A stretch of DNA of 64,000 nt from Verrucomicrobiia bacterium (GCA_963664225.1 OY760937.1:1696001-1760000), one strand, 5' to 3'. Shown: positions 38,251 to 62,120, counted from the first letter of the stretch. The notes: generated by a model not told the origin, from the sequence alone. Program-made: numbers and translations.

Positions 38251-40487
38251 TTATCCCGAAGGGATTACATCATTCAGGCCGGGGTTGCGAGGAACGAGCT
38301 ACCCCGGGTTGCGCACGCCCACGCACCACCAACTCTGTAGGAGTTGGATCAATCCCATACATGCCGTTCGTCGGATTCAATTTCGGATCGTTTTAAAAGG
38401 ATTGCGCGGACGGGACGATTGCGGGTGAGGTTGATCGAACGTGGCTGGATGATCCGCATCCGGAATCGTGGCACGTCCCGTTCCAGTCTGGCGGACATGG
38501 TGGCTTAATTTCCATACAACCACTGCGGCACCAAATTTCCATCTTATTATCCCGAAGGGATTAAATCATTCAGACCGGGGTTGCGAGGAACGAGCTACCC
38601 CGGGTTACACATGCCCACGCACCACCAACTCTGTAGGAGTTGGATCAGTCCCACACATGGCGTTCGTCGCATTCAAATTCATATCGTTTTAAAAGGATTG
38701 CGCGGACGGGACGATTGCGGGTGAGGTTGATCGAACGTGGCTGGATGATCCGCATCCGGAATCGTGGCACGTCCCGTTCCAGTCTGGCGGATATGGTGGC
38801 TTAATTTCCATACAACCACTGCGGCACCAAATTTCCATCTTATTATCCCGAAGGGATTAAATCATTCAGACCGGGGTTGCGAGGAACGAGCTACCCCGGG
38901 TTACACATGCCCACGCACCACCAACTCTGTAGGAGTTGGATCAATCCCATACATGGCGTTCGTCGCATTCAATTTCGTATCGTTTTAAAAGGATTGCGCG
39001 GACGGGACGATTGCGGGTGAGGTTGATCGAACGTGGCTGGATGATCCGCATCCGGAATCGTGGCACGTCCCGTTCCAGTCTGGCGGATATGGTGGCTTAA
39101 TTTCCATACAACCACTGCGGCACCAAATTTCCATCTTATTATCCCGAAGGGATTAAATCATTCAGACCGGGGTTGCGAGGAACGAGCTACCCCGGGTTGC
39201 GCATACCCACGCGCCACCAACTCTGTAGGAGTTGGATCAATCCCATACATGGCGTTCGTCGCATTCAATTTCGTATCGTTTTAAAAGGATTGCGCGGACG
39301 GGACGATTGCGGGTGAGGTTGATCGAACGTGGCTGGATGATCCGCATCCGGAATCGTGGCACGTCCCGTTCCGGTCTGGCGGATATGGTGGCGGTATAAT
39401 CTCCATTCAACCGCTTCGGCGCCGGATTCCCATTCCATTATCCCGAAGGGATTAAATCATTCAGACCGGGGTTGCGAGGAACGAGCTACCCCGGGTTGCA
39501 CATGCCCACGCGCCACCAACTCTGTAGGAGTTGGATCAATCCCATACATGGCGTTCGTCGCATTCAATTTCGTATCGTTTTAAAAGGATTGCGCGGACGG
39601 GACGATTGCGGGTGAGGTTGATCGAACGTGGCTGGATGATCCGCATCCGGAATCGTGGCACGTCCCGTTCCAGTCTGGCGGATATGGTGGCGGTATAATC
39701 TCCAATCAACCACGGCGGCACTGGATTTCCATCTCAATATCCCGTAGGGATTAAATCATTCAGCCCGGGGTTGCGAGGAACGAGCTACCCCGGGTTGCGC
39801 ATACCCCCCCACACCACCAACTCTGTAGGAGTTGGATCAGTCCCACTCATGTAGTTCTTCGCATTCAATTTCGTATCGTTTTAAAAGGATTGCGCGGACG
39901 GGACGATTGCGGGTGAGGTTGATCGAACGTGGCTGGATGATCCGCATCCGGAATCGTGGCACGTCCCGTTCCAGTCTGGCGGATATGGTGGCTTAATTTC
40001 CATACAACCACTGCGGCACCAAATTTCCATCTTATTATCCCGAAGGGATTAAATCATTCAGACCGGGGTTGCGAGGAACGAGCTACCCCGGGTTGCGCAT
40101 CCCCCCCCCATCACCAACTCTGTAGGAGTTGGATCAGTCCCACACATGGCGTTCGTCGCATTCAATTTCGTATCGTTTTAAAAGGATTGCGCGGACGGGA
40201 CGATTGCGGATTGCGGGTGAGGTTTATCGAACGTGGCTGGATGATCCGCATCCGGAATCGTGGCACGTCCCGTTCCAGTCTGGCGGATATGGTGGCCGTT
40301 TAATCTCCAATCAACCACTGCGGCACGGGATTTGGATCTCATTATCCCGAAGGGATTAAATCATTCAGACCGGGGTTGCGAGGAACGAGCTACCCCGGGT
40401 TGCACATGCCCACGCACCACCAACTCTGTAGGAGTTGGATCAGTCCCACTCATGTCGTTCTTCGCATTCAATTTCGTATCGTTTTAA
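38251..40487 (+). repeat. Tandem array of ~297-bp REP-like units (7 full units plus an 8th head)
   Basis: Marker ATCCCG(A/T)AGGGATT at 38253, 38549, 38845, 39141, 39440, 39739, 40037, 40344 (periods 296,296,296,299,299,298,307). Confidence 0.97.
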
Positions 40488-40502
40488 AAATTCACGGTAT
40501 TC
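40440..40502 (-). pseudogene. 3'-terminal fragment of a Y1/HUH (IS200/IS605 or RAYT-like) transposase
   Basis: Translates EYREFLKRYEIECEERHEWD*; shorter versions (LLKRYEIECDERHVWD*) occur in each repeat unit; resembles the ..YDERYVWD* C-terminus of this family. Confidence 0.65.
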
Positions 40503-40588
40503 TGATTTATGGGCAATCTTCCTCAATGTCTCCCAGCCCGCACGCTCCCGCACCGGCCAGGCAGCGGGGTGGACAAAAGCTCCGATTG

Positions 40589-40617
40589 TTGACCTGCAGT
40601 GAAAAAGGGTTTAAATC
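40589..40617 (+). promoter_or_regulatory. Putative sigma70 cassette promoter (Pc-like)
   Basis: TTGACC-N17-TAAATC, ~70 bp upstream of the attI-like GTTGGGC (40688-40694); spacing conserved in three copies. Confidence 0.5.
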
Positions 40618-40705
40618 CCATACATGCGACGAATTAAGAATGGATTCCGGCCGGTCCAATTCACGAACCGCTGGTCGCATTGTCAAAGTTGGGCTTCTGA
40701 TCGGT

Positions 40706-41002
40706 ATGAAAGCGCGCTCCATGTTCCTGCTGTCCCTAATTCTGATGTTCGGGGCACTGCTTATGGTGCTTCGGGGACGGTCTCAACTTAACGAGTCTTT
40801 TCAGGCTTGGCATAGTGGCGAGCATGAGGTTTTTCGGCAGTTTGCCCATCGAGGTGGATGGTTTATTTACCCTGCTTGGGCGCTCGCTGTCGGCGGCGTG
40901 GCATGCCTGTTCGCCTCGTACCGCAGACACGAGCCCGCGTGGCGATGGACGGTGGTGGCCCTGCTTGTGCTCTTCCTCCTTTTCGGCCTCGCGCCCGTAT
41001 GA
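40706..41002 (+). CDS. Cassette A: small membrane protein (98 aa, ~3 TM)
   Basis: ATG 12 nt after GTTGGGC; hydrophobic; intact in duplicate 60185-60481. Confidence 0.7.
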   Translation: MKARSMFLLSLILMFGALLMVLRGRSQLNESFQAWHSGEHEVFRQFAHRGGWFIYPAWALAVGGVACLFASYRRHEPAWRWTVVALLVLFLLFGLAPV

Positions 41003-41009
41003 AACCGAA

Positions 41010-41135
41010 GTTCAACCAGTTCACCACACTGAACTGCCGCCAAGCGTTGCAGTTTCGATGCGCCGGGTTCTTCGGGCGTTGCATTTGCTGGCAGCTCCCG
41101 TTTACGGCGCCCGTCGGTGAGCCAGAGCGTTAACC
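41010..41135 (+). other. attC-like recombination site
   Basis: R'' GTTCAAC ... R' GTTAACC (imperfect), inner TCACC/GGTGA arms; located between stop and next ATG. Confidence 0.6.
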
Positions 41136-41152
41136 GCTATACATCACGCACT

Positions 41153-41440
41153 ATGAAATTCTTTACCACCCCCGATGACAAATTTGTGCATCTTGCAGAC
41201 GATGACAAGCAGCGGGCTGCGGCTTTGGACCTTCTGGAGAGTTCTCGCTCGGCCTATTATTTTGGCGGGCTCCTGGTCATCGCGGTCGCGGCGTGCTTGG
41301 AATTGAGCGGGCACGGTATGGGAGGTTTCGCCATTTTTGGCGTATTGTGTACTTGTCTTGCCTTCAAGTATGAGTCAGACATACGGACACTTAGGATGGT
41401 TGACAATATGCGGAAGAGATATGAAACCAGAGTTAGTTAA
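41153..41440 (+). CDS. Cassette B: small membrane protein (95 aa, 2 TM)
   Basis: ATG 41153; stop TAA lies inside the next R'' box; duplicate 59747-60034. Confidence 0.75.
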   Translation: MKFFTTPDDKFVHLADDDKQRAAALDLLESSRSAYYFGGLLVIAVAACLELSGHGMGGFAIFGVLCTCLAFKYESDIRTLRMVDNMRKRYETRVS

Positions 41441-41513
41441 CAAAACGCTCCAGGCAATCGCCGTCAAGCGCTTCGGTTGGCATGTCGGCTGTGCCTGATC
41501 TTGCTCGTTAGGC
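41435..41513 (+). other. attC site
   Basis: AGTTAAC-aaaacgCTCCAGGCA ... TGCCTGAtcttgctc-GTTAGGC; perfect GTTRRRY; ATG 10 nt downstream. Confidence 0.8.
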
Positions 41514-41522
41514 CTCTTTTAT

Positions 41523-42038
41523 ATGTCGCGCGCGAAGGTCAGATGGATTTGGGTTTGCAGCGCGGTCGCCGTCTTGATATTGGCGGCTGTGGCGTTGGTT
41601 TGCTGGCACGGCGCAGCCGAGCCTCTCGGGAACTTTCCGATTTCGCTCCATGGTACAACCAACGATCCGATACGTGGATTGGTGGCCTCCTTCAGCGTGA
41701 CCAACGAGAGCCGGATGAGCATTTACTACTGTATTTGTCCGGTTCAAGTGAAGTCGGACGGTGCATGGCCAGACTTGCGGATTCCGCGCAGCGGCGGCAG
41801 TGAGTTGGCATCGGGCGGGGCTGACGTGTTTTCTGTCGTGGCGCCGGCAGCCGCGCAAGAGTGGAGAGTTCCGGTGGTGTGGGGATACAGACCCACAGGG
41901 TATCGGTCCGTCACGGGACGGGTGAAATACAATCTCCGCTTGAATTGGGACCGGCTGCGACATGGACGGTTCCCAACGCTGGACAACCACGCACAGTTCA
42001 CGCTGCATGCCAGCTATTCCCCGACGTTCAGCAAATGA
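41523..42038 (+). CDS. Cassette C: membrane-anchored/secreted hypothetical protein (171 aa)
   Basis: N-terminal hydrophobic anchor; intact in duplicate 59149-59664. Confidence 0.75.
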   Translation: MSRAKVRWIWVCSAVAVLILAAVALVCWHGAAEPLGNFPISLHGTTNDPIRGLVASFSVTNESRMSIYYCICPVQVKSDGAWPDLRIPRSGGSELASGGADVFSVVAPAAAQEWRVPVVWGYRPTGYRSVTGRVKYNLRLNWDRLRHGRFPTLDNHAQFTLHASYSPTFSK

Positions 42039-42226
42039 GAAACGGCTTTCATGGTTTCTGAGCTGTCGGAGTAAAGGGATTCGCCGGGCGCAGGACAAAA
42101 TTCAGGAAGCTGGTAAAAGCCTAAACCATACGAACCCAGCCAAGACGCCAATCGGCGTTGTGGGGCATATAATCCGGTGCGGTGGCATCCTCCAAACCGT
42201 CCAATCATTCAGAAAACGCGAAAAAG

Positions 42227-42264
42227 TTCTCCCTCTCCGCTCTGGGGAGAGGGCCGGGGTGAGG
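42227..42264 (+). repeat. REP-like palindrome (second family)
   Basis: ttctCCCTCTCCgctctggGGAGAGGGccggggtgagg hairpin. Confidence 0.65.
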
Positions 42265-42449
42265 TGGCTTTTCGATTCCCATCCACTCTAATTCTCCGCG
42301 TTCTCCGCGCCTCCGCGTGATGCCTTTTTTCGCGCCCCATTCCTTCGCCCGTCAACCCCGCGCGGCGGTATCCTCCAAACCGTCCAATAAACCCAGGGCT
42401 CGCAATACTCCTCCTTCTTGTATCTGATTTTCCATCTATTCTTGTTTTG

Positions 42450-42645
42450 TTTGAAAAGACGGAATAAATGGAACTGTCCTGCCGCCTGCAGGCGGCAGGA
42501 CAGTGGCGCGGACGAGCTCGTTTCCTTCTTGCATTGGTTTTTAACCAAATGCGCGAGGAGCCAGAGCCGTTCGTGCCTGTGTCCTAAACTCGAACCGTTG
42601 CTTGAGCGGCCCACCAAGGCCTGCTCGTATTTACAAGAATGAGCC
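42450..42645 (+). ncRNA. IS110 bridge RNA (predicted)
   Basis: 5' 14-bp hairpin; target loop with TTTCCTTCT (42521-42529) and AGGAG (42556-42560); donor loop with ACCGTTGCT (42594-42602) and TACAAG (42632-42637); guides match the element junctions; RNA ends approximate. Confidence 0.8.
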
Positions 42646-42653
42646 AGAACACT

Positions 42654-43580
42654 ATGACCACTATCTACGCTGGTTTGGATATTGCCAAGCTGAGTCTTGA
42701 TCTCCAACTGGCCGGTCGTTCCCACCATCTGCCCAATACCGCCGCCGGTCATCGCCAGCTCGTCAAACTCCTGGCGCAGCATCCCGGCGCTCACGTCATC
42801 TGTGAAGCCACCGGCGGCTACGAGCGTGAGGTGGCTGACGCCCTCCATCATGCCAGCATTCCTGTCAGCATCATCAATCCCGCCCGCGTCCGGCATTTCG
42901 CCCGCGCCCAGGGACAACGGGCCAAAACCGACCGTATAGATGCCGCCGTCCTCTCCGCCTATGGGCAGGCCTTCGCCCCCAAACCCACGCCCGCGCGTTC
43001 CGAGGTGGAGGAGCAGTTGACCGAACTGGTTCGCCGCCGCACTCAGATCCTTGATCTGCTTATTAGCCAGCGCCATCAGATCGAACGCCTCACGCTGCCC
43101 AAGTTGCGCCGCCAGGCCCAGAGCCTGCTGCGTCGATTGGAACGGGATCTGGAGCATATCGAGACCCAACTCAAAGCGCTGCGCCAGAAAACCACAGAAT
43201 TGGATGAGCGCGCAAAGAAACTCGAGGCTATTACTGGGGTGGGCGCGATTACCGCCTTGGGGGTTTTGGCTGAGCTGCCCGAGTTGGGCACGCTCAATCG
43301 GGGGCAGGCCGCCGCCTTGGCCGGACTGGCTCCACATCCTCGAGAAAGCGGCCAGTGGCAAGGCCGCCGCTCCATCGGTGGCGGAAGAGCCGCCGTTAGA
43401 CGTGCCCTCTACATGGCCGCCCTGGTGGCTGCGCGCTGCAATCGCCAACTCAAGGAGTTCTAGGAACGACTCCGATTGGCGGGCAAGCCCGCCAAAGTCG
43501 CGCTCACCGCCGTCATGCGCAAACTCATTGTCCTGATGAACCAAATCCTTAAAAACCCAGATTTTGCACTCTCAAATTAA
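42654..43580 (+). pseudogene. IS110 recombinase interrupted by one in-frame TAG (43461-43463)
   Basis: GLDIAK, CEATG, KTDRIDA (DEDD) and GLAP..RESG; frame resumes after the stop: ERLRLAGKPAKVALTAVMRKLIVLMN..*. Confidence 0.9.
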
Positions 43581-44117
43581 ATACCGTTGCTCCTGGGGGG
43601 AGTTCTCCATGGTTAAATCTTTTCCTCCTGGTTCTAATCTGTGTTTCTCTGAGCCATCTGTGGATTTCCCCTGCTTATCCCTATCCGTGCCATCCGTGAT
43701 ATCAGTGGTTAAAAATCCTGCTCATCCTGCTTATCCATGTTGATATTTCTTCACCCACCTCTTTCCATGTAACTTGTAATGAAAGACATCCCACTTTGGG
43801 TTCATGGGGAGGGCGGTCGTCCTTTCAGATCTGACTTTTGCCGGACCCTCAATCGCCGCCCGGCCATTCCCGAAACTCTTGCTGAATTCGTTTCGTATAT
43901 ACTCACATGCCCTTTATAAGGACTTTTTTCCCTTGCCGAAGAATTTTGTCCTGCGCCCGGATTCGCCCTCAGCTTGGATCGGTTCTGGACTTGCAGCAGA
44001 AAACCAGCACGCGGGAAAACCCTGTAAAACGCCACGAAAGCGCATGAGAAGGCCCATTCCAACAATGGCTTCAAATATTTTAATGAATCAATCAATGAAG
44101 AAGTGCGTCCGATCCAA

Positions 44118-46550
44118 ATGAAAAATATCACCGCACTCTTCCTTGCTGCATGCATTATCGAATGCAGTTCGGTTCTGGTTTCTGCGGCGATAATTAACAA
44201 CAGCCCGACCCGCTCGAACGGGGCCGACGGCGGAGAAGAATTCATCGGACCGCTGTCCGGCTGGGACAACGTCAAGAGCTACGGCGCCGCCGGTGATGAT
44301 TCGCGCGACGACACGGCATCGATCCAGAATGCCTTGAATGCCTGGGGAACTTCCGGGCACAGCAAGGTGCTCTTTATTCCCGCCGGGACCTACCGGATTA
44401 ATCGCACACTCGCTGCGGCCAACAAATCCGGTTGCCAGCTTTTGGGCGCCGACCCATCGACCGTGACCTTCAAGTGGTGTGGGGCGGAGGGCACGAACAT
44501 GTTCGACTTTAATTCTGTCACCAAAACACGCATGGGCCGGTTCACGCTCGATGGCGGCGGCACGGCCGGGGTGGGCTTCTGGCTGTGGGTGTCCAACGGC
44601 ACGGCGAATGCCAGTTCCATGGAAGATGCCGTCTTCAAGAACATGCGCATCGGCCTGCGGTTTTGCGACCATCCGGGTGAAGTCGCCGGGCCGCCGAACT
44701 ACATCTGTGATTTTCCCATCGACCGCTGCCAGTTTCTCAACTGCACGGTTGCGGGCATCAACCAGAACAATCCCAACACGCTCAACCTGCCCGCTGAGTA
44801 TTGCCTTTTTGACCATTGCGGCTTTGGCGTGACCGACGATCTTGCGGGAACCTCGGGCCACGGCAATATCCAGATTTACAACTCAGTGTTTCGGCATTCG
44901 ACCTTTGCTGACGCGGCCTTTCGTCCCGACGCCTCATTCTCCTCGTTCCGGGGGAATTACTCGATTGGATCCCAAATGTTCGCGAGCATCGCATGGAACG
45001 GACGCAATGGCCTCGGCCTGACGCTGCAGGACAACGTGATCCTGGACCCCGTGGACACGCCGATCCGCATCCTGTGCGCCGGGGCCTTGTCGCTGATCGA
45101 CAACGTGATTCGATACAACGGCACCGTGGCCCAGGTGGGCGTGGGCGGCGCCTATGCGGATGACACGATATCGGTTGGCAACACCTATTGTAAGACAAGT
45201 CGGACAAACCCGATTTCCTCCTCGGGCCGCGTGACCAGACTGGACGACCTGTGCGTGAGCGCCAGCGCGATCACCAATACCGAGCCGGTCCTGCCGCCAA
45301 CACCGCCGAACAAAAATCGGTTCATTTGCGAACTCCCGGCCAACGCCACCGGTGCGGATATTCAGAATGCCATCGATTCCCTCCATGCCAGCCATAACGG
45401 GCAGCGTGCCGTCATTCACATTCCGGCGGGAGTTCACACGGTCACCAATACGATTACCGTACCCGCCAATAGCGATATTCAACTGGTCGGCGACGGGGTG
45501 TTCTCGAGCGTTTTGCGCTGGGCCGACGCCCCGGCGAACCATGGATCGATGCTCCTGAAGCTGACCGGCCCCAGCCGGGCGACGGTGCGGGATCTGTTGA
45601 TCAACGCCAATGGGAATTGCGATCGCGGCCTGGTGACCGATGTGGCCGACGTGCCTGGTGACCGTGTTTACATGAGCCAGATCGGTTGCGATAACTTCGG
45701 CCCCGCTGTTTCCACGTATCGCTGGTCGGACATATTGATCCACGGCCAGTCGAACGCCATCGTGGACATCAACACCGCGGAATTGAACTACTCCGGCAAC
45801 GCGGCCTACAGCAACGGGGTCGTCGTCGTTGCCGGCCCCTCCGTGAGCGTTTATGGCAATACGCCGGTCGGTTCGCCCTTTGCCGGTGGACGCACCATCA
45901 TCACCGGCGTCAATATTGGCGGTTATGAAGTTCACAATAATGCGCAACTACTGGTTCAGGATTCCTGGTACGAGGCGCATCCCATCGAAAACCCGCGTTT
46001 CCTGAACCTGACCTCGTCAGGCACGGTGACCCTGCAAGGCAATCTGATAGCCCCTTGCAACGGCCCCGTCACCGCCGGGACACCGGGGATCGACATCGAC
46101 GGCTTCCAGGGCCGCTTCTCCCTCCTGAGCAGCTTCTTCAATCACTGCAATACCAACGCCCATTCCACAACCGTGGTCCTCGCGCCGAACACCGGAACGA
46201 ACTGCAACGTTCTGGTCATGGGCTCAGTCGGTGACGATGGTAGTGTCAACGGCCAGTGGTTCTTTAACAAGTCGGCCACCGCCAACGTCGGATTCCTGAA
46301 TAATAATTTTTATACCGTCGGCCTGGGTCTGACCCAGAACACCAATTCGGGTCGCGAGGACGCTGCATTCCTGCGGACCATGCTCGCCCAGTCGCGAACT
46401 CAAAAACGAGTGGCCTGGCCCTTGACAGCCACACCGACCGGCACGTCCGATGTTCGGTGCTTCCGGGTTTTTGTCATCAACGCCATTTCGGCCAACATGG
46501 TCATTTACAGATCCGCCTCCGGCCTGCCCGGCATCACCCCGCTGCGGTGA
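44118..46550 (+). CDS. Secreted pectin-lyase-fold (tandem beta-helix) protein
   Basis: Signal peptide; NVKSYGAAGD..DDTASIQNAL..FIPAGTYRI and a second IQNAID..IPAGVHTVTNTI repeat. Confidence 0.8.
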   Translation: MKNITALFLAACIIECSSVLVSAAIINNSPTRSNGADGGEEFIGPLSGWDNVKSYGAAGDDSRDDTASIQNALNAWGTSGHSKVLFIPAGTYRINRTLAAANKSGCQLLGADPSTVTFKWCGAEGTNMFDFNSVTKTRMGRFTLDGGGTAGVGFWLWVSNGTANASSMEDAVFKNMRIGLRFCDHPGEVAGPPNYICDFPIDRCQFLNCTVAGINQNNPNTLNLPAEYCLFDHCGFGVTDDLAGTSGHGNIQIYNSVFRHSTFADAAFRPDASFSSFRGNYSIGSQMFASIAWNGRNGLGLTLQDNVILDPVDTPIRILCAGALSLIDNVIRYNGTVAQVGVGGAYADDTISVGNTYCKTSRTNPISSSGRVTRLDDLCVSASAITNTEPVLPPTPPNKNRFICELPANATGADIQNAIDSLHASHNGQRAVIHIPAGVHTVTNTITVPANSDIQLVGDGVFSSVLRWADAPANHGSMLLKLTGPSRATVRDLLINANGNCDRGLVTDVADVPGDRVYMSQIGCDNFGPAVSTYRWSDILIHGQSNAIVDINTAELNYSGNAAYSNGVVVVAGPSVSVYGNTPVGSPFAGGRTIITGVNIGGYEVHNNAQLLVQDSWYEAHPIENPRFLNLTSSGTVTLQGNLIAPCNGPVTAGTPGIDIDGFQGRFSLLSSFFNHCNTNAHSTTVVLAPNTGTNCNVLVMGSVGDDGSVNGQWFFNKSATANVGFLNNNFYTVGLGLTQNTNSGREDAAFLRTMLAQSRTQKRVAWPLTATPTGTSDVRCFRVFVINAISANMVIYRSASGLPGITPLR

Positions 46551-46714
46551 ATCCGCTACGTGATCGTTAAACCTGCCCGGGCGTGCAGCCGGTTGACCAG
46601 CGGTCAACGGAAAGTCAACCGGTTGAACGCTCTTTTCCGCACGAAAAAAGTTCCCGGCGGTCGCGATTCTTAATGAGCTTTACACGACGCTGGTAAGGTC
46701 GCAAAATTGGGCTT

Positions 46715-51957: not shown

Positions 51958-51986
51958 ACGACCCGTGCCGCAAGATTTCCGGGCAT

Positions 51987-52016
51987 AAAAAAACGGCGGT
52001 TTAACCCGCCGTTTTT
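51987..52016. terminator. Bidirectional terminator
   Basis: A7-CGGCGG-loop-CCGCCG-T5 between convergent genes. Confidence 0.8.
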
Positions 52017-52042
52017 GAAAACTTCACTCACCGAACACTGGT

Positions 52043-53762: not shown

Positions 53763-53981
53763 ATGTCGCTTTGGCAAATCTTCGTCTCGGTCTTCAGCAT
53801 TAGCTTTGCCGTGTTCATTTTGTGGATGCTTGTTGATTGTATTCGGAACGAGGAGGACAAGAATGAGCGCGTGATTTCAGCGATGCTTATTTTGTTTTGC
53901 GGTTTTATTTACGCTCCGGTTTATTTTGTGCAGCGGCATCTTCCAAGGCGTGAAGAGATGAAGAAGCGATTGCACCCCTGA
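53763..53981 (+). CDS. Small 2-TM membrane protein (PLDc_N-like)
   Basis: LWMLVDCIRNE..LILFCGFIYAPVYF pattern. Confidence 0.6.
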   Translation: MSLWQIFVSVFSISFAVFILWMLVDCIRNEEDKNERVISAMLILFCGFIYAPVYFVQRHLPRREEMKKRLHP

Positions 53982-54036
53982 CAGTTCCTTCTCCCGGCGC
54001 TTGGCTTTCTGATTCAAACATGGTTTAATCCAAGGC

Positions 54037-54813
54037 ATGGGATTGCCAAAGCACAAGCCGGTTCCGCTCAAGACATTGGTCGAATATTGTGACCGGATGC
54101 TCGAAATTGAGGGATTCGCCGATTGGCCGGGCGCGGTCAACGGCCTCCAGATGGAGAACGGCGGACAGGTGACGCGGATCGTTGCCGCCGTCGATGCGAG
54201 TCTCGAAGTGGCCCGGTGCGCAGTGGAGGCGAAGGCGGATCTTTTACTGGTGCACCACGGTCTGTTCTGGGGCGAACCCCGGCCGTGGACCGGTGGGCGG
54301 TATGAGTTGATGCGGTTGCTCTGCGAGAACAAGGTGGCCGTTTATAGCGCACATCTGCCTCTGGACGCGCATCCCAAACTTGGGAACAACGCCCTGCTTT
54401 GCGCGGCGCTAGGTTTCAAGCGGTTGACCCCGTTCTTTACCGAAAAAGGGCGTGCCCTTGGTTTTCAAACCATCATGGACATCCCGCTGTCTGATTTAAC
54501 CGTGAACCTCACCCAGGCAGTGGGGGCGACCCCTGTGGTGCTGGCGTGCGGTCCGGAACGTTGTCGGCGGATTGGCGTGGTGACGGGGGGCGCGGGAGGG
54601 GAACTCCGCCAGGCCGTTTCCGAGGGGATCGACACGTTCATCACCGGCGAGGGACCGCACTGGTCTTACGCGCTGGCGCAGGAACTGGGCGTTAACGTGC
54701 TCTATGGCGGTCATTACGCCACCGAGACTTTTGGGGTCAAGGCGCTGGCGGCGCATCTGGCCGCGCGCTACGGCCTGCCGTGGGCGTTCATCGATCAACC
54801 GAGCGGTTTGTAA
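54037..54813 (+). CDS. Nif3/YbgI-like dinuclear metal center protein
   Basis: NGLQ, VHHGLFW, HLPLDAHP..GNN, TGE, GHYATE. Confidence 0.92.
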   Translation: MGLPKHKPVPLKTLVEYCDRMLEIEGFADWPGAVNGLQMENGGQVTRIVAAVDASLEVARCAVEAKADLLLVHHGLFWGEPRPWTGGRYELMRLLCENKVAVYSAHLPLDAHPKLGNNALLCAALGFKRLTPFFTEKGRALGFQTIMDIPLSDLTVNLTQAVGATPVVLACGPERCRRIGVVTGGAGGELRQAVSEGIDTFITGEGPHWSYALAQELGVNVLYGGHYATETFGVKALAAHLAARYGLPWAFIDQPSGL

Positions 54814-54914
54814 TGTACGCCGATACGCTTTGACGGTTCGGAGGGGCTGGCCCATATTTGCAGCGCAATATTTTACGCGCGGGAAAAAACGTGTTAAATT
54901 TGGCGCTGGATTAA

Positions 54915-56276
54915 ATGGCTGACCTGATTACAGAAACGGAAACAAGCGGATCGTCCTCCACGGGAACCCTTGGCGGTTCCTATCGATCAGTGCCGGTGCC
55001 CAAGGGGGTTGGGTTCTGGCGAAAAATGCTGGCTTTCAGCGGACCTGGCTACCTGGTGGCGGTGGGTTACATGGATCCCGGCAACTGGGCCACAGACCTC
55101 GCGGGAGGATCCCGGTTCGGCTACACCCTGTTGAGCGTGGTGCTGCTCTCGAGCATCATGGCCATTATCTTGCAGACGCTGGCGGCCAGGCTCGGAATTG
55201 TCACCGGACGCGACCTGGCGCAAGCCTGCCACGATCAATATTCACCCGCCGTATCCATGGCGCTGTGGATCATGTGCGAGGTCGCCATTTGCGCCTGCGA
55301 CCTGGCCGAAGTCATCGGATCGGCCATCGCCCTCAAGCTCTTATTCAACATCCCATTGGTGTGGGGCGTTTGCATCACCGTGCTGGATGTATTCGGCATT
55401 CTGTATCTGGAGAAGAAAGGTTTTCGTTATATGGAAGCCCTGGTGGTGGTGCTAATTCTGACGATTGGCGGGTGTTTCCTGGCCATCATATTGATGTCGC
55501 ATCCCTCCATCAGCAGTCTGCTCAGCGGATTCATCCCGCGCACCGAGGTGGTGACAAATCCCGTCATGCTCTACATGGCCATCGGCATTCTGGGGGCCAC
55601 GGTCATGCCGCATAATTTGTATCTGCATTCCTCCCTGGTCCAAACCCGCAAATTCGACCAGGACAACGCGGGCCGGATCGAGGCCATGCGTTTCGCCACC
55701 CTGGACGTCGTGGTGGCGTTGGGCACGGCGTTGTTCATCAATGCGGCCATCCTGATCGTGGCCGCGGCCACTTTTCATGTGAACGGACAGCAAAACGTGG
55801 CGGAAATCCAGGACGCCCACAAGATGCTTGCGCCGATTTTGGGAACGCAGGTCGCGGGCATTTTGTTCGCGCTGGCCCTGCTGGCGTCCGGCCAGAACTC
55901 CACGCTCACCGGCACACTGGCCGGGCAGATCGTCATGGAAGGCTTTTTGAATCTGCGGATGCGGCCGTGGTTGCGGCGGTTGATCACCCGCCTGATCGCC
56001 GTGGTGCCTGCGGTCATCGCCAGCGCCATCTATGGCGAAAGCGGCACGGCCAAGCTGCTGATCTTCAGCCAGGTGATCCTCAGCATCCAGCTCTCCTTCG
56101 CCGTGGTGCCCCTGGTCATGTTCACGAGCAACCGGCGCATGATGGGGCGTTTTGTGAGCCCCTGGTGGTTGCAGGGGCTGGCTTGGCTGGTAACCGCCGC
56201 CGTGGTGATTTTAAATGTAAAGCTCCTGATGGATTTCGTGGGTGTCAGCGAATGGCTGACCGCCTTGATGAAGTAA
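54915..56276 (+). CDS. mntH: Nramp divalent metal transporter
   Basis: [24 protein letters not shown]. Confidence 0.95.
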
Positions 56277-56288
56277 CTCCCGCCACTT

Positions 56289-56717
56289 ATGTATAAAAAA
56301 ATCCTCGTCGCCCTCGATAATACGCATGCGGACGAAAGTCTCCTCCCGCATGTGGCGCGGATGGCGGCAATATGCGGCGCGGAACTGCTCCTGGTGCACG
56401 TGGCGGATGGCTGGGCCGCGCGCAATTACGAGCGCTTTCAATTGCAGGAGTCCGAGGAGATGAAAACCGACCGCGCCTACCTGGACCAAAAGGCGGAGGA
56501 ACTCCGTGCCCAGGGATTGAATGCCACCGCGCAGCTCGCGCTTGGAAATCCGCCCGAAGAGATTCTGAAAATATCCGAGATCGAGAATTGCGACCTCATC
56601 GCGATGACCACCCATGGGCACCGGTTCCTGGGGGATTTGCTTTACGGAAGCACCATTTCAAAGGTTCGGCATCACGCGCAGGTTCCCCTCCTGATCGTCC
56701 GCGCGCAGAAGGTTTAA
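56289..56717 (+). CDS. Universal stress protein
   Basis: YKKILVALD, DLIAMTTHGH..GS..VPLLIV. Confidence 0.9.
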   Translation: MYKKILVALDNTHADESLLPHVARMAAICGAELLLVHVADGWAARNYERFQLQESEEMKTDRAYLDQKAEELRAQGLNATAQLALGNPPEEILKISEIENCDLIAMTTHGHRFLGDLLYGSTISKVRHHAQVPLLIVRAQKV

Positions 56718-56993
56718 GCCCCTCGCAAATATTCATCCCCCGAGAAGGATAGGATGAAACTGATGGTGCTGCAGAGACTGTTGAAACAGGAGTTGGGCTC
56801 ACCGTGTGGCAATGATCCATTGTGACCTTGCCTCCGTACGGCGTCCGGCATTATCCACCCGGAGCAATCCTGTAGGCGTTGAAGCAAATTCGCATCCCGG
56901 CGTTGTCGCACGATCCGAATCAGCCCACGGACGTGCTGAAGGTCGATGTGGACGAGGACGGCAACGGCGGCGGTAAAGAAATTGGTGAGGTGT

Positions 56994-57086
56994 GATCAAC
57001 GCTCCGACTCAGGCACGCTGGGCCAATGATGTTCTGCTGCCAACTGAGACGCGATCCCAGCGTTGCCTGCAGCCGGTTTGTTGGAC
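56994..57086 (-). other. attC site
   Basis: Minus strand GTCCAAC-aaaccggCTGCAGGCAacgctggg ... cccagcgTGCCTGAGtcggagc-GTTGATC, 4 nt after the cassette F stop. Confidence 0.75.
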
Positions 57087-57090
57087 TGCC

Positions 57091-57480
57091 TCACTCAAGC
57101 TCGCTTTCTTTCAATGCCATCTTCATCGGCACTCCAGCATCCGCAATTTGGCGTATCATGCCAGCCTGAGCCGAGTTCGCCACATGATTGGTAGCATCAA
57201 CGAACAACACTACTGCGGCACTGACCCTCTTGAAGCGTGCACACTCCGACTTTAATTCATCTGCGGTCATATACTTCTTGTTCACAAATACGGCACCCGT
57301 CGCATCGATCTTGACCTTGGCCCACTCCGAGACTGAGGGTGCGGGTGAACCTGCGGACTGCCCCGGGAATACTCCGCTGCTTTGGTTCGCAGGGGCTTCG
57401 GAGTTGGTTGACTGGGTCTCCTGTTTGCACCCGGCAACCACAAAAAGCACAGCGCATCCTATTAGTAATGGGATTTTCAT
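57091..57480 (-). CDS. Cassette F: lipoprotein (129 aa), possibly ExbD-like C-terminal fold
   Basis: Lipobox VVAGC; bounded by attC sites; fold assignment tentative. Confidence 0.7.
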   Translation of the reverse strand: MKIPLLIGCAVLFVVAGCKQETQSTNSEAPANQSSGVFPGQSAGSPAPSVSEWAKVKIDATGAVFVNKKYMTADELKSECARFKRVSAAVVLFVDATNHVANSAQAGMIRQIADAGVPMKMALKESELE

Positions 57481-57495
57481 ATGATATTTATTCGT

Positions 57496-57561
57496 GTCCA
57501 ATGCTCAAGGTGACCCACGAGCGTCCGCAGGGCGCGAGTTGGGTCCACCGTATGGTTGGAA
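57496..57561 (-). other. attC site with degenerate core
   Basis: Minus strand TTCCAAC..GGTGGACCC ... GGGTCACC..ATTGGAC (GTT core changed to ATT). Confidence 0.7.
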
Positions 57562-57981
57562 CTTTCGTCTATGTCGAACGAGGTCTCTCTTGATCCCAAA
57601 GACAACTAACGACGGCAAAATGAGTGCCACCAGGCCACATGAGATGATCTCATTCTTCAGAAGCGCGTCAGGAGCTTCGAGAACTGATGTTCTTGGAGCG
57701 TCCGGATCGAAGAAGACAACCAGCGCAACGCTGGGTCGGAGTTTGCCGCGTTCTGGATTCGGCATGCCCGTTTGTGTCTGACCCGTGTAAACACGATTCT
57801 TTACAGTATATTGGTAGCGAACCGTTTTGTGGAAGCTGACCGTCGCTTCGGTCACAGCACCCTGGCAGTGACTCGCGTGTTTCGTGAGCCGCCAGAATGT
57901 GGGAATATTCAAGCTGCCTGTCCCGACCGCCGTGATGAGCGCAAGAATCGGCCAAAATGTGATGAGGACGCCTCTATTCAT
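57505..57981 (-). CDS. Cassette E: DUF3592-like membrane protein (158 aa)
   Basis: TM, then G.VT..VRYQYTV....Y.G....V.FDPDAP..S, then TM. Confidence 0.65.
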   Translation of the reverse strand: MNRGVLITFWPILALITAVGTGSLNIPTFWRLTKHASHCQGAVTEATVSFHKTVRYQYTVKNRVYTGQTQTGMPNPERGKLRPSVALVVFFDPDAPRTSVLEAPDALLKNEIISCGLVALILPSLVVFGIKRDLVRHRRKFQPYGGPNSRPADARGSP

Positions 57982-57989
57982 GTGCCTTG

Positions 57990-58048
57990 GCCCAACGCCA
58001 ACGTCAGCGTTGGGGCGGAACCCCATTCGTTGCGCCGCCTGGTTCGGC
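57990..58048 (-). other. attC site (59 bp)
   Basis: Minus strand GCCGAAC-caggcGGCGCAACG..ggggttccgcccc..AACGCTGAcgttggc-GTTGGGC; ATG 9 nt downstream. Confidence 0.8.
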
Positions 58049-58591
58049 TTTTATCGGCCAGTACCTGGCATCACGCGTAAGAACCAGCTCCCCGTTTTTA
58101 TACACTGACAATCGTGAGAATGACTCCGTGTCCGAATAGGTTCCCACAGAAATCTCCATAAATTCTCCATGTGCGCCAGATGATGCGGTGAGCCGCTTTT
58201 CGGGGTACACAACAACTGTGCTCACTGCAAGACTGCCGCCGGTAATCCCCCAGGACTTTATGGCCGAAGCCTTCTCATCATATGCTATGACGGCGCGCAG
58301 GGGCTCTTTGACGTATTGGGAGTCCATGCTGCACACGATATATTTGCCGCCAATCGTTTTCATGGTCACCACGGATTCTTCTGTGAAGGCCCGGCCGTCC
58401 CGGAGCTTGAAAGCAGAGCTGCACTTGGCAACCTTCCAGAATGGCAACGATGCCAGTTCAGTGCGCAGCGCGTTGGTGTCACCAGGGGCCGCGACCAAGG
58501 TATTGAATTGCTCTAGTGTCATCGGATCCTGACCCCGCGCGACGCCCGCGATAAGCAACACCGAGAAGTAAATAAGTAAAGTTGTTTTCAT
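58004..58591 (-). CDS. Cassette D: secreted hypothetical protein (195 aa)
   Basis: Signal peptide MKTTLLIYF..ARG; C-terminus runs into the attC (..AEPGGATN..). Confidence 0.75.
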   Translation of the reverse strand: MKTTLLIYFSVLLIAGVARGQDPMTLEQFNTLVAAPGDTNALRTELASLPFWKVAKCSSAFKLRDGRAFTEESVVTMKTIGGKYIVCSMDSQYVKEPLRAVIAYDEKASAIKSWGITGGSLAVSTVVVYPEKRLTASSGAHGEFMEISVGTYSDTESFSRLSVYKNGELVLTRDARYWPIKAEPGGATNGVPPQR

Positions 58592-58686
58592 AATGCGATT
58601 AAAGTGACATACCGTCTTTGATTATGCGCCGAGCAACTCGTATCTTGGACCGGGCAGAGTCCATTCTCAATTCGTCGCATATACGG

Positions 58687-58715
58687 AGTTTAAACCCTTT
58701 TCCAATGTTGGTCAA
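58687..58715 (-). promoter_or_regulatory. Putative sigma70 cassette promoter (Pc-like)
   Basis: TTGACC-N17-TAAACT on the minus strand, pointing into cassettes D-E-F. Confidence 0.55.
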
Positions 58716-58799
58716 TGTCAGAGGTTTGCCCACGCCGCTCGCTGGCCGACGTGGGAGTGAGCGGGCTGGGAGACATTGAGGCAGATTGTCCGTAAATCA

Positions 58800-59055
58800 G
58801 AATACCGCGAGTTTATAAAAGGATACGAAATTGAATGGGACGAACGCCATGTATGGGACTGATCCAACTCCTACAGAGTTGGGGGGGGGTATGCGCAACC
58901 CGGGGTAGCTCGTTCCTCGCAACCCCGGTCTGAATGATTTAATCCCTTCGGGATAATGGAATGGGAATCCGGAGCCGAAACGATTGAATGGAGATTATAC
59001 CGCCACCATATCCGCCAGACCGGAACTGGACACGCCACGATTCCGGATGCGTATC
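58800..59055 (-). repeat. Partial copy of the 297-bp unit including transposase 3' fragment
   Basis: AATCCCTTCGGGAT at 58941-58954; plus strand 58800-58862 translates EYREFIKGYEIEWDERHVWD*. Confidence 0.9.
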
Positions 59056-59148
59056 ACCCATGCAACCCTGAGTGGAATGCAATCATCCAGCGCCGGGTCG
59101 CGAGGCACGAGCTTTATTCCGACAGCTCAGAAAACACGAAAGCAGTTT

Positions 59149-59664
59149 TTATTTGCTGACTGTCGGGGAATAGCTGGCATGCAGCGTGAACTGTGCGTGG
59201 TTGTCCAGCGTTGGGAACCGTCCATGTCGCAGCCGGTCCCAATTCAAGCGGAGATTGTATTTCACCCGTCCCGTGACGGACCGATACCCTGTGGGTCTGT
59301 ATCCCCACACCACCGGAACTCTCCACTCTTGCGCGGCTGCCGGTGCCACGACAGAAAACACGTCAGCCCCGCCCGATGCCAACTCACTGCCGCCGCTGCG
59401 CGGAATCCGCAAGTCTGGCCATGCGCCGTCCGACTTCGCTTGAACCGGACAAATACAGTAGTAAATGCTCATCCGGCTCTCGTTGGTCACGCTGAAGGAG
59501 GCCACCAATCCACGTATCGGATCGTTGGTTGTACCATGGAGCGAAATCGGAAAGTTCCCGAGAGGCTCGGCTGCGCCGTGCCAGCAAACCAACGCCACAG
59601 CCGCCAACATCAAGACGGCGACCGCGCTCCAAACCCAAATCCATCTGACCTTCGCGCGCGACAT
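59149..59664 (-). CDS. Cassette C' (paralog of 41523-42038)
   Basis: 171 aa, a few substitutions. Confidence 0.75.
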   Translation of the reverse strand: MSRAKVRWIWVWSAVAVLMLAAVALVCWHGAAEPLGNFPISLHGTTNDPIRGLVASFSVTNESRMSIYYCICPVQAKSDGAWPDLRIPRSGGSELASGGADVFSVVAPAAAQEWRVPVVWGYRPTGYRSVTGRVKYNLRLNWDRLRHGRFPTLDNHAQFTLHASYSPTVSK

Positions 59665-59673
59665 ATAAAAGCG

Positions 59674-59752
59674 GGCTATCGTTCAGGCTCAGGCACAGCC
59701 GACATGCCAACCGAAGCGCTTGACGGCTACTGCCTGGAGCGTTTTGTTAACC
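59674..59752 (-). other. attC site with degenerate core
   Basis: Minus strand GGTTAAC ... TGCCTGAGCctgaac-GATAGCC. Confidence 0.65.
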
Positions 59753-60034
59753 AACTCTGGTTTCATATCTCTTCCGCATATTGTCAACCATCCTAAGTGT
59801 CCGTATGTCTGACTCATACTTGAAGGCAAGACAAGTACACAATACGCCAAAAATGGCGAAACCTCCCATACCGTGCCCGCTCAATTCCAAGCACGCCGCG
59901 ACCGCGATGACCAGGAGCCCGCCAAAATAATAGGCCGAGCGAGAACTCTCCAGAAGGTCCAAAGCCGCAGCCCGCTGCTTGTCATCGTCTGCAAGATGCA
60001 CAAACTTGTCATCGGGGGTGGTAAAGAATTTCAT
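59747..60034 (-). CDS. Cassette B' (paralog of 41153-41440)
   Basis: 95 aa, identical except the last residue. Confidence 0.75.
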   Translation of the reverse strand: MKFFTTPDDKFVHLADDDKQRAAALDLLESSRSAYYFGGLLVIAVAACLELSGHGMGGFAIFGVLCTCLAFKYESDIRTLRMVDNMRKRYETRVG

Positions 60035-60051
60035 AGTGCGTGATGTATAGC

Positions 60052-60177
60052 GGTTAACGTTCTGACTCACCGACTGGCGCCGTAAACGGGAGCTGCCAGC
60101 GAATGCAACGCCCGAAGAACCCGGCGCATCGAAACTGCAACGCTTGGCGGCAGTTCAGTGTGGTGAACTGGTTGAAC
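60052..60177 (-). other. attC-like site (copy of 41010-41135)
   Basis: GTTCAAC ... GTTAACC on the minus strand. Confidence 0.6.
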
Positions 60178-60184
60178 TTCGGTT

Positions 60185-60481
60185 TCATACGGGTGCGAGG
60201 CCGAAAAGGAGGAAGAGCACAAGCAGGGCCACCACCGTCCATCGCCACGCGGGCTCGTGTCTGCGGTACGAGGCGAACAGGCATGCCACGGCGCTGGCAG
60301 CGAGCGCCCAAGCAGGGTAAATAAACCATCCACCTCGATGGGCAAACTGCCGAAAAACCTCATGGTCGCCACTATGCCAAGCCTGAAAAGACTCGTTAAG
60401 TTGAGACCGTCCCCGAAGCACCATAAGCAGTGCCCCGAACATCAGAATTAGGGACAGCAGGAACATGGAGCGCGCTTTCAT
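60185..60481 (-). CDS. Cassette A' (paralog of 40706-41002)
   Basis: 98 aa, a few substitutions. Confidence 0.7.
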   Translation of the reverse strand: MKARSMFLLSLILMFGALLMVLRGRSQLNESFQAWHSGDHEVFRQFAHRGGWFIYPAWALAASAVACLFASYRRHEPAWRWTVVALLVLFLLFGLAPV

Positions 60482-60644
60482 ACCGATCACAAGCCCAACT
60501 TTAACAATGCGACCAGCGGTTCGTGAATTGGACCGGCCGGAATCCATTCTTAATTCGTCGCATGTATGGGATTTAAGCCCTTTTCCACTGCAGGTCAACA
60601 ATCGGAACAGGTCGCGCACAATGCCGGATGCGTCCCATCCGCGC

Positions 60645-60748
60645 AATCCTGTAGGGTTGCAATCTTTCAGCCCCGGGTCGCGAGGAACGAGCCACCCGGG
60701 GTCATCGTCCACCCTCCATAATTTCCCCAACGCAGTAAACGTTGAATC
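60645..60748 (+). repeat. Diverged REP-like head in opposite orientation
   Basis: aatcctGTAgggtt..ttcagccccgggtcgcgaggaacgagccacccgggg..caacg..cgttgaatc. Confidence 0.8.
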
Positions 60749-60862
60749 AAATTCGCATCCGGCATTGCAGCGCGATCTGAATCGGCCAGAGGGCGTGATG
60801 AGTGACTTCGACGCGGCTTCGTTCAACCCGTGAAAGCAAATAATCCTTCGCTCCGCTCCGGA

Positions 60863-61540
60863 TTATCTACATTCCTTTTTTTGTTGGGCGGCTCGCATTT
60901 CACGTCGATAACGCATCATGACCAGATGGATGCAAGGTGGCACTGCTAGAAGCAAACCCACCACGGCAATGATACAGGCGAGAGAATGCGAACATAAATG
61001 CACAAAAAGGCCGCTGATGCTGGTCCTCTGCGACAACCTAATCCGTAGGCTCGGCTTCGTCGCATCGATAGCAGCCATCGGCTTGTCGTTCTGAAATGAA
61101 ATCTCATAGTTCTTGCCGACTTCGCCCGTGAACGTGAGCGTGTGATATGCAACTTTCTCAGCATAAAAAGCTGTGTCTGGATTAGGCGAAATCCCCTCGG
61201 CGAGAATATTCCCATCACAAATGATGCTTTGCCTAACCGGAATATGAGTCGGAAGGTCACGAATCACTCCGGGTGCATTCGTTCTCGGACATACGACATC
61301 AACCCAATAAACGCCCTTGAATGCCACGGTGAACCCGTTGGTAAAAGAGAAATCCCCATCATAACGAATGCTCTTCTCAAAGGCAGGTTTGGCCATCCGC
61401 TCATTACGCGATGCTAACTGCCAAACTAATACTGCTGTCACTAACGATAAAAGCGCGAGAACTGTGAACACAATCGTTGAGGATTTCAGTCCCAACATGG
61501 GTTCTGACGTCATCGGATGGTCTGTTGTGAAAACATTCAT
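60863..61540 (-). CDS. Cassette-like gene G: membrane protein with two TM anchors
   Basis: Lower GC; ATG 14 nt after GTTAGGT (61554-61560); no clear downstream attC; start uncertain. Confidence 0.7.
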   Translation of the reverse strand: MNVFTTDHPMTSEPMLGLKSSTIVFTVLALLSLVTAVLVWQLASRNERMAKPAFEKSIRYDGDFSFTNGFTVAFKGVYWVDVVCPRTNAPGVIRDLPTHIPVRQSIICDGNILAEGISPNPDTAFYAEKVAYHTLTFTGEVGKNYEISFQNDKPMAAIDATKPSLRIRLSQRTSISGLFVHLCSHSLACIIAVVGLLLAVPPCIHLVMMRYRREMRAAQQKKECR

Positions 61541-61722
61541 GACATCCACTGCCACCTAACATTAAGCAGTGTATGCGCCGCACCCTAGGTTGCAAGCGCG
61601 CAGACTTGTCCAGAGCCTCACGAGGGCATGGCGCAGACATTGCTTAACGTTGGTCAACATCAGAGCTTCTGACCACCCCGCTGGCTGGCCGGTTTGGGAG
61701 CGGAGAGCAGAGGGCGGGTCGC

Positions 61723-62120
61723 TGATCCAACTCCTACAGAGTTGGTGGTGCGTGGGCATGTGTAACCCGTGGTAGCTCGTTCCTCGCAACCCCGGTCTGA
61801 ATGATTTAATCCCTTCGGGATAATGAGATGGGAATCCGGTGCCGCCGTGGTTGATTGGAGATTATACCGCCACCATATCCGCCAGACTGGAACGGGACGT
61901 GCCACGATTCCGGATGCGGATCATCCAGCCACGTTCGATAAACCTCACCCGCAATCGTCCCGTCCGCGCAATCCTTTTAAAACGATACGAAATTGAATCC
62001 GACGAACGGCATGTATGGGACTGATCCAACTACTACAGAGTTGGTGGTGCGTGGTTATGTGCAACCAGGGGTAGCTCGTTCCTCGCAACCCCGGGCTGAA
62101 TGATTTAATCCCTTCGGGAT
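61723..62120 (-). repeat. One full 299-bp unit plus one REP head
   Basis: AATCCCTTCGGGAT at 61808-61821 and 62107-62120. Confidence 0.93.

Follow-up and report, generated by a model that had tools for sequence, protein, structure and literature searches.

Clusters of attC recombination sites lacking integron integrases (CALINs), defined as such by Cury et al. 2016 (PMC4889954), are common, and the question raised by the locus described here is how such clusters arise, become scattered and are expressed without an integron cassette promoter (Pc). That survey lists four routes, all of them untested. The locus lies in a 64-kb stretch, hereafter the window (OY760937.1:1696001-1760000, assembly GCA_963664225.1; contig C1 of genome G000), of the single-contig 5.78-Mb genome of a Verrucomicrobiia bacterium; positions below are those of the window, apart from six- and seven-digit positions, which are those of the genome. 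Two repeat-rich zones are located between dnaG (36268-38175) and dapF (62373-63194) and are separated by about 14 kb of ordinary genes. An earlier note on this DNA had described here groups of small open reading frames (ORFs) with attC sites between them, each behind a shared leader and next to repetitive extragenic palindromic (REP) units, and had proposed cassette platforms serviced in trans by an integron integrase (IntI). The groups are probably relic chromosomal integron cassette arrays (CALINs) lodged in repeats derived from a REP-associated tyrosine transposase (RAYT) and headed by a portable leader, in a lineage that has lost IntI.

The identification of the attC sites rests on a covariance model, not on hairpin energy. 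Plain folding of single-stranded DNA was dropped as an attC criterion, the spacers between the ORFs being not distinctive (z -1.6 to +1.2), and a lineage covariance model was built because folding energy did not separate them. Seed sites beside the intI genes of relatives were supplied by a crude scanner for R''/R' boxes with a hairpin; at relaxed settings its background amounted to 84 pairs per 400 kb, and at strict settings the 61554-61655 hairpin was its sole find in the window. The seed alignment comprised 11 attC sites from the array side of several intI-bearing genomes of the same order, and in its consensus R'' pairs with R', a spacer is left unpaired and the L stem carries two bulged bases (20 pairs, nine of them with compensatory changes). 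Model R1, made from this seed, retrieved 31 sites in the relatives' loci, and the final model R2 was built solely from those 31, that is, from intI-linked attC sites of other genomes of the order and from none of the present genome.

The search of the whole window with R2, on both strands and with filters off, revealed seven sites at E < 0.001 (56.4 to 23.2 bits, E 2.5e-12 to 8.5e-4), as many as the earlier note had called. All seven are located between small ORFs, on the ORF strand. The left array contains two of them, at 41010-41135 (+ strand, 23.2 bits, E 8.5e-4) and 41435-41513 (+ strand, 43.5 bits). The right array contains five on the - strand, namely 56994-57086 (56.4 bits, E 2.5e-12, the top site of the window), 57496-57561 (28.8 bits, with the degenerate R' box ATTGGAC), the short site 57990-58048 (31.2 bits), and 59674-59752 and 60052-60177 (38.0 and 30.9 bits), the last two belonging to an inverted duplicate. 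It also includes one marginal site, a near-perfect hairpin of 102 nt with AAC/GTT ends at 61554-61655, scored on the + strand (18.6 bits, E 0.013), opposite to the strand of its ORF. Beyond these, all remaining matches in the window have at most 11 bits and E of at least 1.2. The window sites agree with the consensus of the lineage, also at the R and L positions and at the bulged bases, and GTT is kept in six of eight R' boxes, being lost in GATAGCC and ATTGGAC.

These results bear directly on the notion that the groups are ordinary operons of small genes with terminator hairpins, the attC calls and the association with the leader being artefacts. The indistinct folding of the spacers and the marginal rank of the 61554-61655 site would agree with it, but seven R2 matches have E from 8.5e-4 to 2.5e-12 and the best match after them in the 64 kb has only E 1.2, the sites carry the lineage consensus down to the bulged bases, and attC matches are clustered genome-wide. 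Such operons are a highly improbable explanation, close to refuted.

In the left array the cassette ORFs, all on the + strand, are 40706-41002 (98 aa, three hydrophobic segments, no Pfam match), 41153-41440 (95 aa, membrane-like) and 41523-42038 (171 aa, with an N-terminal hydrophobic segment), and no attC was detected by R2 after the last of them. On the - strand, the right array contains ORF136 (57091-57501, about 130 aa, with a lipoprotein-like signal), ORF173 (57505-58026, 173 aa, two hydrophobic segments), ORF195 (58004-58591, 195 aa, with a signal peptide-like N-terminus) and ORF230 (60863-61555, 230 aa, ATG at 61540, two hydrophobic segments, no Pfam match). A simple hydropathy scan found an N-terminal hydrophobic segment in all seven small ORFs behind leaders; six of the seven have no Pfam match, and ORF173 has only a weak, sub-threshold match to DUF3592. 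The stretch 40581-42076 is the reverse complement of 59112-60606 with 97.5% identity over 1496 nt, and the - strand copy contains ORFs 60185-60481, 59747-60034 and 59149-59664. The copies differ at 37 positions, with ten non-synonymous and five synonymous codon changes. Thus, the order of leader and ORFs described for four cassette groups is real, but the groups beginning at 40706 and 60481 hold the same three cassettes, and the window contains three distinct cassette sets, one of them present twice.

No intI gene was found in the complete single-contig genome with the TIGR02249 profile, the best match being 82 bits against a cut-off of 265 bits, and neither the window nor the rest of the genome contains the gene or a sizeable fragment of it. 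It had been stated that the 64 kb are free of tyrosine recombinases, and indeed none of the 11 genome matches of PF00589 falls within 1696001-1760000. Five recombinase genes were scanned: the top two are XerC/XerD-like (251-296 bits, above their TIGR02249 scores), the third scores best against the XerC/XerD models (190 bits, well below the cut-offs), and the remaining two give weak generic matches of 62-93 bits. Of 201 genomes of the order, 68 encode an IntI that exceeds the cut-off of the same TIGR02249 profile; one IntI of the order (L028:1501-2457) is 55.8% identical to the class 1 IntI1 over 319 aa. In a same-genus genome (G001, locus G001:C39:24000-37032), the sole intI found is partial (221 bits, covering model positions 61-264) and is accompanied by one good attC and an attI ending in ...aataaatactGTTAGGC, which points to ongoing loss of integrons in the genus. 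The XerC/D-like gene at 5.336 Mb was rejected as an IntI candidate, being of Xer type and adjoining topoisomerase III. After this gene (G000:C1:5334753-5337440), on the same strand, a 41-nt leader-like piece (E 0.0085), a 485-aa ORF of the beta-lactamase family, similar to penicillin-binding proteins, and a weak attC (23 bits) were observed.

At the scale of the genome, R2 found at least 28 attC sites at E <= 0.01, in 15 clusters, and a filters-off search of 14 chosen loci added 30 array-strand sites at E <= 0.05 and one opposite-strand echo of a site already counted. At least 12 clusters contain two or more attC sites. Taking as CALINs groups made up of two or more attC sites that lie no more than 4 kb apart and have no integron integrase close to them, the window arrays belong to this class, as the earlier note had recognised. 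In 25 of 38 R' boxes of the genome GTT is kept, and in 13 it is lost; since a third of the boxes have lost it, the sites would be relics and not uniformly functional. With clustered, decaying attC sites and no IntI, these arrays are CALINs as Cury et al. 2016 use the term, and the idea of service in trans by an IntI is not supported, no IntI being encoded in the genome and one third of the R' boxes being without GTT. In 23 internal cassettes, the R'' box pairs better with the cassette's own 5' end than with the array neighbour (mean 5.30 versus 4.87 Watson-Crick pairs), several pairings being 7/7; in the window, R'' AGTTAAC of the 41435-41513 site pairs 6/7 with the 5' end GTTAACC of its own cassette. 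This pairing is a surviving mark of cassette assembly.

The frames in which the arrays are lodged were traced to a single transposase locus. The genome encodes nine Y1_Tnp genes, one of which, at 3202502-3202957 outside the window, matches the repeat units of the window. It is intact, with a PF01797 match of 73 bits, an HUH motif (HVH) and a YI..Q motif (RKYITEQ), and the protein ends in ...YEIEWDERHVWD. The native locus (3202079-3203060) has the order RE'-C-LE-RAYT-RE, where LE and RE are left-end and right-end structures; the flanks of the gene are inverted REP structures repeated at about 50 genome loci. The intact gene is preceded by a second right-end structure and the spacer 'C', the template of a 296-nt unit. 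The derivation of the REP units from the end of a Y1/HUH transposase, suggested in the earlier note, is borne out by this match.

The tandem array at 38251-40489 on the + strand is real, with 7.5 copies of 296 nt and 94% matches (TRF score 3796). On this strand the unit consists of reversed RE hairpins (nt 1-103), the last 15 RAYT codons, also reversed (nt 104-150), and spacer C (nt 151-296). The downstream flank of the RAYT gene is the reverse complement of unit nt 1-103, the last codons of the gene correspond to nt 104-150, and C makes up the remaining 146 nt; the upstream flank matches window positions 60631-60755 at 93.7%. Every unit retains RAYT aa 137-151, as revealed by tblastn (LKRYEIECDERHVWD in each unit), and the copies adjoining full leaders retain aa 125-151 (tblastn E 1.5e-9 and 3.2e-10), one such remnant being 40443-40523 on the - strand (tblastn E 1.5e-9, phmmer E 1.1e-9). 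As all pieces of the unit match the RAYT locus, the tandem array, to judge from its composition, is a multiplied, internally deleted RAYT locus. Only remnants of the RAYT, aa 125-151 and aa 137-151, occur in the window.

In the right zone, RAYT-locus matches on the + strand comprise an LE piece at 56865-56897 that forms the distal end of the right array (56870-56892 being 100% identical to 3202458-3202480), a stretch at 58779-59112 in which the remnant aa 125-151 and RE hairpins are followed by spacer C and then by LE hairpins a-b, truncated at 59112, a full LE structure at 60631-60755 (93.7% to 3202355-3202480), and 1.5 units (RE, C, RAYT remnant, RE, C) at 61722-62154. Read on the + strand, the zone has the order RAYT remnant-RE-C-LE(a-b), cargo, C-LE, cargo, leader piece, RE-C-RAYT remnant-RE-C. 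The cargo stands antisense at the place of the transposase gene and is linked by the native inter-element spacer, and in two modules, 56865-58958 and 60631-61827, it is bracketed by LE and RE. Near cassettes throughout the genome, REPs are enriched, a point on which the earlier note had made its proposal depend: among the 15 attC clusters, defined without reference to REPs, eight have a RAYT-type REP within 2 kb against 0.50 expected by random placement, and none of 5000 permutations reached eight. Other regular runs of the same REP hairpins were observed at 619967-622516, 3530783-3531222 and 4443805-4444619, with a spacing of about 614, 191 and 236 nt, respectively.

An architecture of this kind could mean that the LE-cargo-RE modules are non-autonomous elements similar to IS200/IS605 insertion sequences, moved in trans as single strands by the one RAYT at 3202502-3202957 and spreading the cassette platforms. 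Both modules share the layout of the RAYT locus with the cargo replacing the gene, RAYT remnants abut the leader, the intact RAYT with its HUH (HVH) and YI..Q motifs is available in the genome, and the segment present as an inverted duplicate is bounded on both sides by REP-derived sequence; the enrichment of REPs near attC clusters and the at least four or five different types of REP-leader junction in the genome fit as well. However, no whole module was found at a second locus, and the search revealed neither a target motif or other target-site signature nor an empty site. The sole recent duplicate is local, inverted and without RE, and the linkers are the native RE'-C-LE spacer, as expected from tandem duplication. 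RAYTs are also generally held to move short REP units and their hairpin-forming doublets (REPINs), not kilobase cargo. Transposition of the modules by the RAYT is therefore considered improbable.

The element that unites the cassette groups is the leader, the core of which is 115 nt without indels. It is located at 40580-40694 (+ strand, TTGACC-17-TAAATC, with the inverted pair ATGCGAC/GTCGCAT and the end CAAAG|TTGGGC), at 58610-58724 (- strand, TTGACC-17-TAAACT) and, in the inverted duplicate, at 60493-60607 (- strand, likewise 115 nt and indel-free). A piece of 51 nt at 61652-61702 (- strand), found by BLAST only, ends just after TTGACC. A shared leader at all four sites, as previously described, was thus confirmed, one site having only the 51-nt piece, but its proposed beginning at 40490-40523 belongs to the RAYT remnant aa 125-151. 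At the truncated copy the 61554-61655 hairpin stands in for the leader just after TTGACC, and its first box, GACCAAC, overlaps TTGACCAAC, which is native to three other leader copies; this hairpin/leader joint could be a recombination joint.

Throughout the genome, 11 full and five partial copies of the leader were counted (15 of the 16 by profile search and the piece at 61652-61702 by BLAST). An attC site on the same strand lies within 2.5 kb downstream of 13 of the 16 copies, and within 600 nt of nine. A RAYT-type REP is located no more than about 420 nt upstream in seven of the 15 profile matches, and the BLAST-only piece is also preceded by a REP. The first ORFs behind the leaders are mutually unrelated (DUF4279, a PQQ propeller, PP-binding, DUF6714 and uncharacterised ORFs). 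The expectation that most copies stand before different cassettes and that many are preceded by REPs was thereby borne out, and the possibility that the leader would never be linked to variable cassettes did not materialise. The leader directs TTGACC-17-TAAAYY towards the ORFs, which makes the leader a putative promoter region. At one locus (G000:C1:1957600-1964200), four same-strand leaders share a stretch of 5 kb in which three attC sites and several REP variants are interspersed among them; one of the leaders is 56 nt past an attC. A (CCCTCAG)n heptamer run was noted upstream of one leader of this locus, with a short related stretch at two other copies.

Several other identities of the leader were tried and rejected. 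A structured RNA or riboswitch was not supported, as no copy matched Rfam at E <= 1 and none of 16 predicted pairs showed a compensatory change among 13 copies. The core is not a coding remnant of the RAYT (tblastn with aa 64-97, E 9.4; profile and phmmer comparisons of 11 copies in three frames, E >= 0.34). Its variation, examined by eye, is not biased to third codon positions, which speaks against a leader peptide, and R2 has no match at any leader, which speaks against the leader being an attC itself.

The sharp end of the leader points to another role. Conservation stops at CAAAG, TT follows in eight of 13 copies, then an RGGC-like tail, and the first ORF starts 2-20 nt past this end in most copies. 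In one reading, which is the core idea of the earlier note with the IntI now lost, the leader would be a genuine docking site of the attI type with a Pc-like promoter; an IntI would have inserted cassettes at CAAAG|TT, and the genome would once have had many satellite platforms. The layout resembles that of real attI regions: in one relative, TTGACC-17-TAGAGT stands about 50 nt ahead of GTTAGGC in the attI region, and attI1, read from a plasmid (NZ_CP051717.1), ends in ...aaacaaaG|TT and contains the box gatgttacgcagcag, identical at 12 of 15 positions to the start of the leader core, GATGTTGACCAGCAG, although this resemblance is short. In metagenomes the leader was found on two short contigs only, from a near relative about 93-94% identical; one contig has the same REP and leader followed by three different proximal cassettes and rejoins the genome inside the attC at 1958335-1958427, the distal cassette being the same, as docking at the leader would predict. 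When the junctions were paired by hand, R'' favoured the 7-mer of the leader junction over the array box in four leader-proximal cassettes. At 338 kb, R'' ACATAAC of the first cassette pairs 7/7 with the junction GTTATGT against 5 in the array; the counts are 6 versus 5 at 222 kb, 5 plus two G-T pairs versus 5 plus none in the window, and 5+1 versus 4+2 at 846 kb.

Against this stand the three leader-proximal cassettes with no better pairing (1959228, 58807 and locus L060) and the estimate that, with about seven junctions tested, a single 7/7 would arise by chance in roughly 3-35% of cases. Leaders also occur inside arrays, as in the copy located 56 nt past an attC, as well as in front of genes that are not cassettes. 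The leader, contrary to what the earlier note had expected, was never found beside an intI: BLAST gave matches in none of 40 relatives, two patterns had no matches in genome_contigs, and the leader profile gave nothing above noise in 24 intI-linked loci of relatives. No homology with the relatives' attI regions was detected, including that of the partial-intI locus of the same-genus genome. This missing adjacency lowers the probability that the leader is an attI, and not that it works like one. An attI-like past of the leader is plausible on these comparisons, and its identity as a true docking site is a tentative possibility.

A broader scenario combines the two preceding ones: a portable leader with attI-like and promoter functions, lodged in a RAYT element where the transposase gene had been, would have been multiplied by copying linked to REP and RAYT into more than 12 integrase-less platforms, which an IntI loaded in trans. 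This combination is doubtful.

The explanation preferred here is that of relic CALINs in RAYT-derived repeats. According to it, the arrays are lodged in degenerate, partly tandem copies of the single matching RAYT locus, in which the RAYT gene is mostly or wholly gone and a cassette set with its leader stands antisense in its place. The leader would be a portable element specific to this genome, most probably a promoter with a short 5' region, that keeps the cassettes expressed where no integron Pc is near; the sharp CAAAG|TT end hints that cassettes were also joined there. The modules were most likely multiplied via unequal or ectopic recombination and local duplication between REP-containing linkers, and the cassette content would have been fixed earlier by an IntI since lost from the lineage. 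The arrangement is unusual and appears to be decaying. Besides the lost GTT triplets, decay is indicated by the leader ends, of which eight of 13 retain TT behind CAAAG, and by the ten non-synonymous against five synonymous codon changes in the duplicate, and the different proximal cassettes behind the same REP and leader in the metagenome relative speak for turnover. The attC sites, the derivation of the units from the RAYT locus, the copy numbers, the associations and the lack of intI are established by the analysis, whereas promoter activity, the sequence of events and the way of duplication are inferred.

Several observations weigh against this explanation. A scan with the sigma-70 consensus accepted only one of two checked leader copies (58715-58687), and its totals were not above those of shuffled sequences. 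Three of the 16 leader copies have no downstream attC, and one full copy precedes a 443-aa PQQ-propeller gene without its own attC; the leader thus does not belong strictly to cassettes. The genome-wide R2 search scored 150 of 2246 first-look candidates. Because the modules were duplicated as blocks, the associations among REPs, attC sites and leaders are not independent events, and REPs and cassettes may both simply accumulate in dispensable intergenic DNA.

Comparison with known systems places the locus between several of them. It resembles the CALINs described by Cury et al. 2016 (PMC4889954) in its small arrays (2-5 sites), in cassettes of unknown function and in a genome without IntI, which is the case for about half of the CALIN-bearing genomes surveyed there; it differs from those described in the CALIN part of that survey in that at least 12 CALINs occur in one genome and that many have a common 115-nt leader and RAYT-derived frames. 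Integron mobilization units and MITE-flanked integrons (miniature inverted-repeat transposable elements; Poirel 2009 and Gillings 2009, as summarised by Delihas 2011, PMC3184786) similarly contain cassette segments between small non-autonomous repeats, movable in trans. Those, as the summary describes them, are MITEs of the DDE type; they have terminal inverted repeats, are accompanied by 5-bp target duplications and enclose a defective class 1 integron borne on plasmids, whereas the present frames are of REP/RAYT (Y1/HUH) type, with no target duplication or movement detected and no intI remnant inside. The Neisseria REP2 and Correia elements, in the same review (Delihas 2011, PMC3184786), are likewise short repeats directly upstream of many unrelated genes and carry promoter-like hexamers; the leader differs in being tied to attC cassettes, in ending at a G|TT crossover-type site and in having no terminal inverted repeats.

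REP/RAYT systems, including REPINs and clusters of bacterial interspersed mosaic elements (BIMEs), are similar in having one RAYT between inverted REPs, about 50 dispersed hairpin loci and REP tandem arrays, but the present units keep pieces of the RAYT coding end and have kilobase cargo between LE and RE. Like an attI/Pc region, the leader stands at the array head, ends in G|TT followed by RGGC and has an upstream TTGACC reading into the cassettes; unlike it, the leader is multi-copy, not adjacent to intI and without homology to the relatives' attI. The literature search found no published description of REP/RAYT-framed cassette arrays or of a multi-copy leader at the heads of CALINs. CALINs are a known kind of structure; the REP-framed, leader-headed form is undescribed.

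As for the remaining content of the window, in the left zone, read on the + strand, the tandem array of 7.5 units of 296 nt is followed by the leader and three small ORFs, after which come other repeats and an IS110-family element. This element (42424-43808, + strand; transposase 42639-43463, PF01548 and PF02371) forms the boundary of the left array and is inserted in a separate REP family (42171-42388, copies 42171-42205 and 42354-42388). It was considered as an insertion sequence targeting attC, and this was rejected, as the insertion is in that different REP family and not in an attC. In contigs of two sequencing runs, 42424-43808 is skipped exactly. The genes between the zones are pectate-lyase-like, squalene-hopene cyclase, ribosomal protein S1, aconitase-family, NIF3, Nramp and Usp genes. 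The right zone, followed on the - strand from 62154, begins with the 1.5 units, the 51-nt leader piece, the 102-nt hairpin, ORF230 and a REP structure, continues with the leader core and the same three ORFs as in the left zone, then one unit, and ends with the full leader, ORF195, ORF173, ORF136 and the final REP piece at 56865-56897. No array polymorphism was found in the contigs of four sequencing runs, which matched either the window proper or the second copy of the duplicate and ended at repeats. Synteny downstream of dnaG with the same-genus genome G001 was not found either, dnaG itself being only 69% identical at the DNA level.

For the question of how CALINs arise, scatter and remain expressed, this genome offers a concrete, testable case, with a dozen or more CALINs, many of which share one leader and stand in frames derived from a transposase. 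A promoter in the leader would account for the continued use of stranded cassettes, and a leader that also served for docking would be the first attI-like element to be multi-copy and independent of intI. Mobility of the frames would connect two known systems based on single-strand hairpins, attC/IntI and REP/RAYT, and, if the platform scenario were true, integron cassettes would have a second, transposon-like route for being spread around the chromosome and kept expressed there. If none of this holds, the locus would illustrate clearly how integrons decay in a Verrucomicrobial genome rich in repeats.

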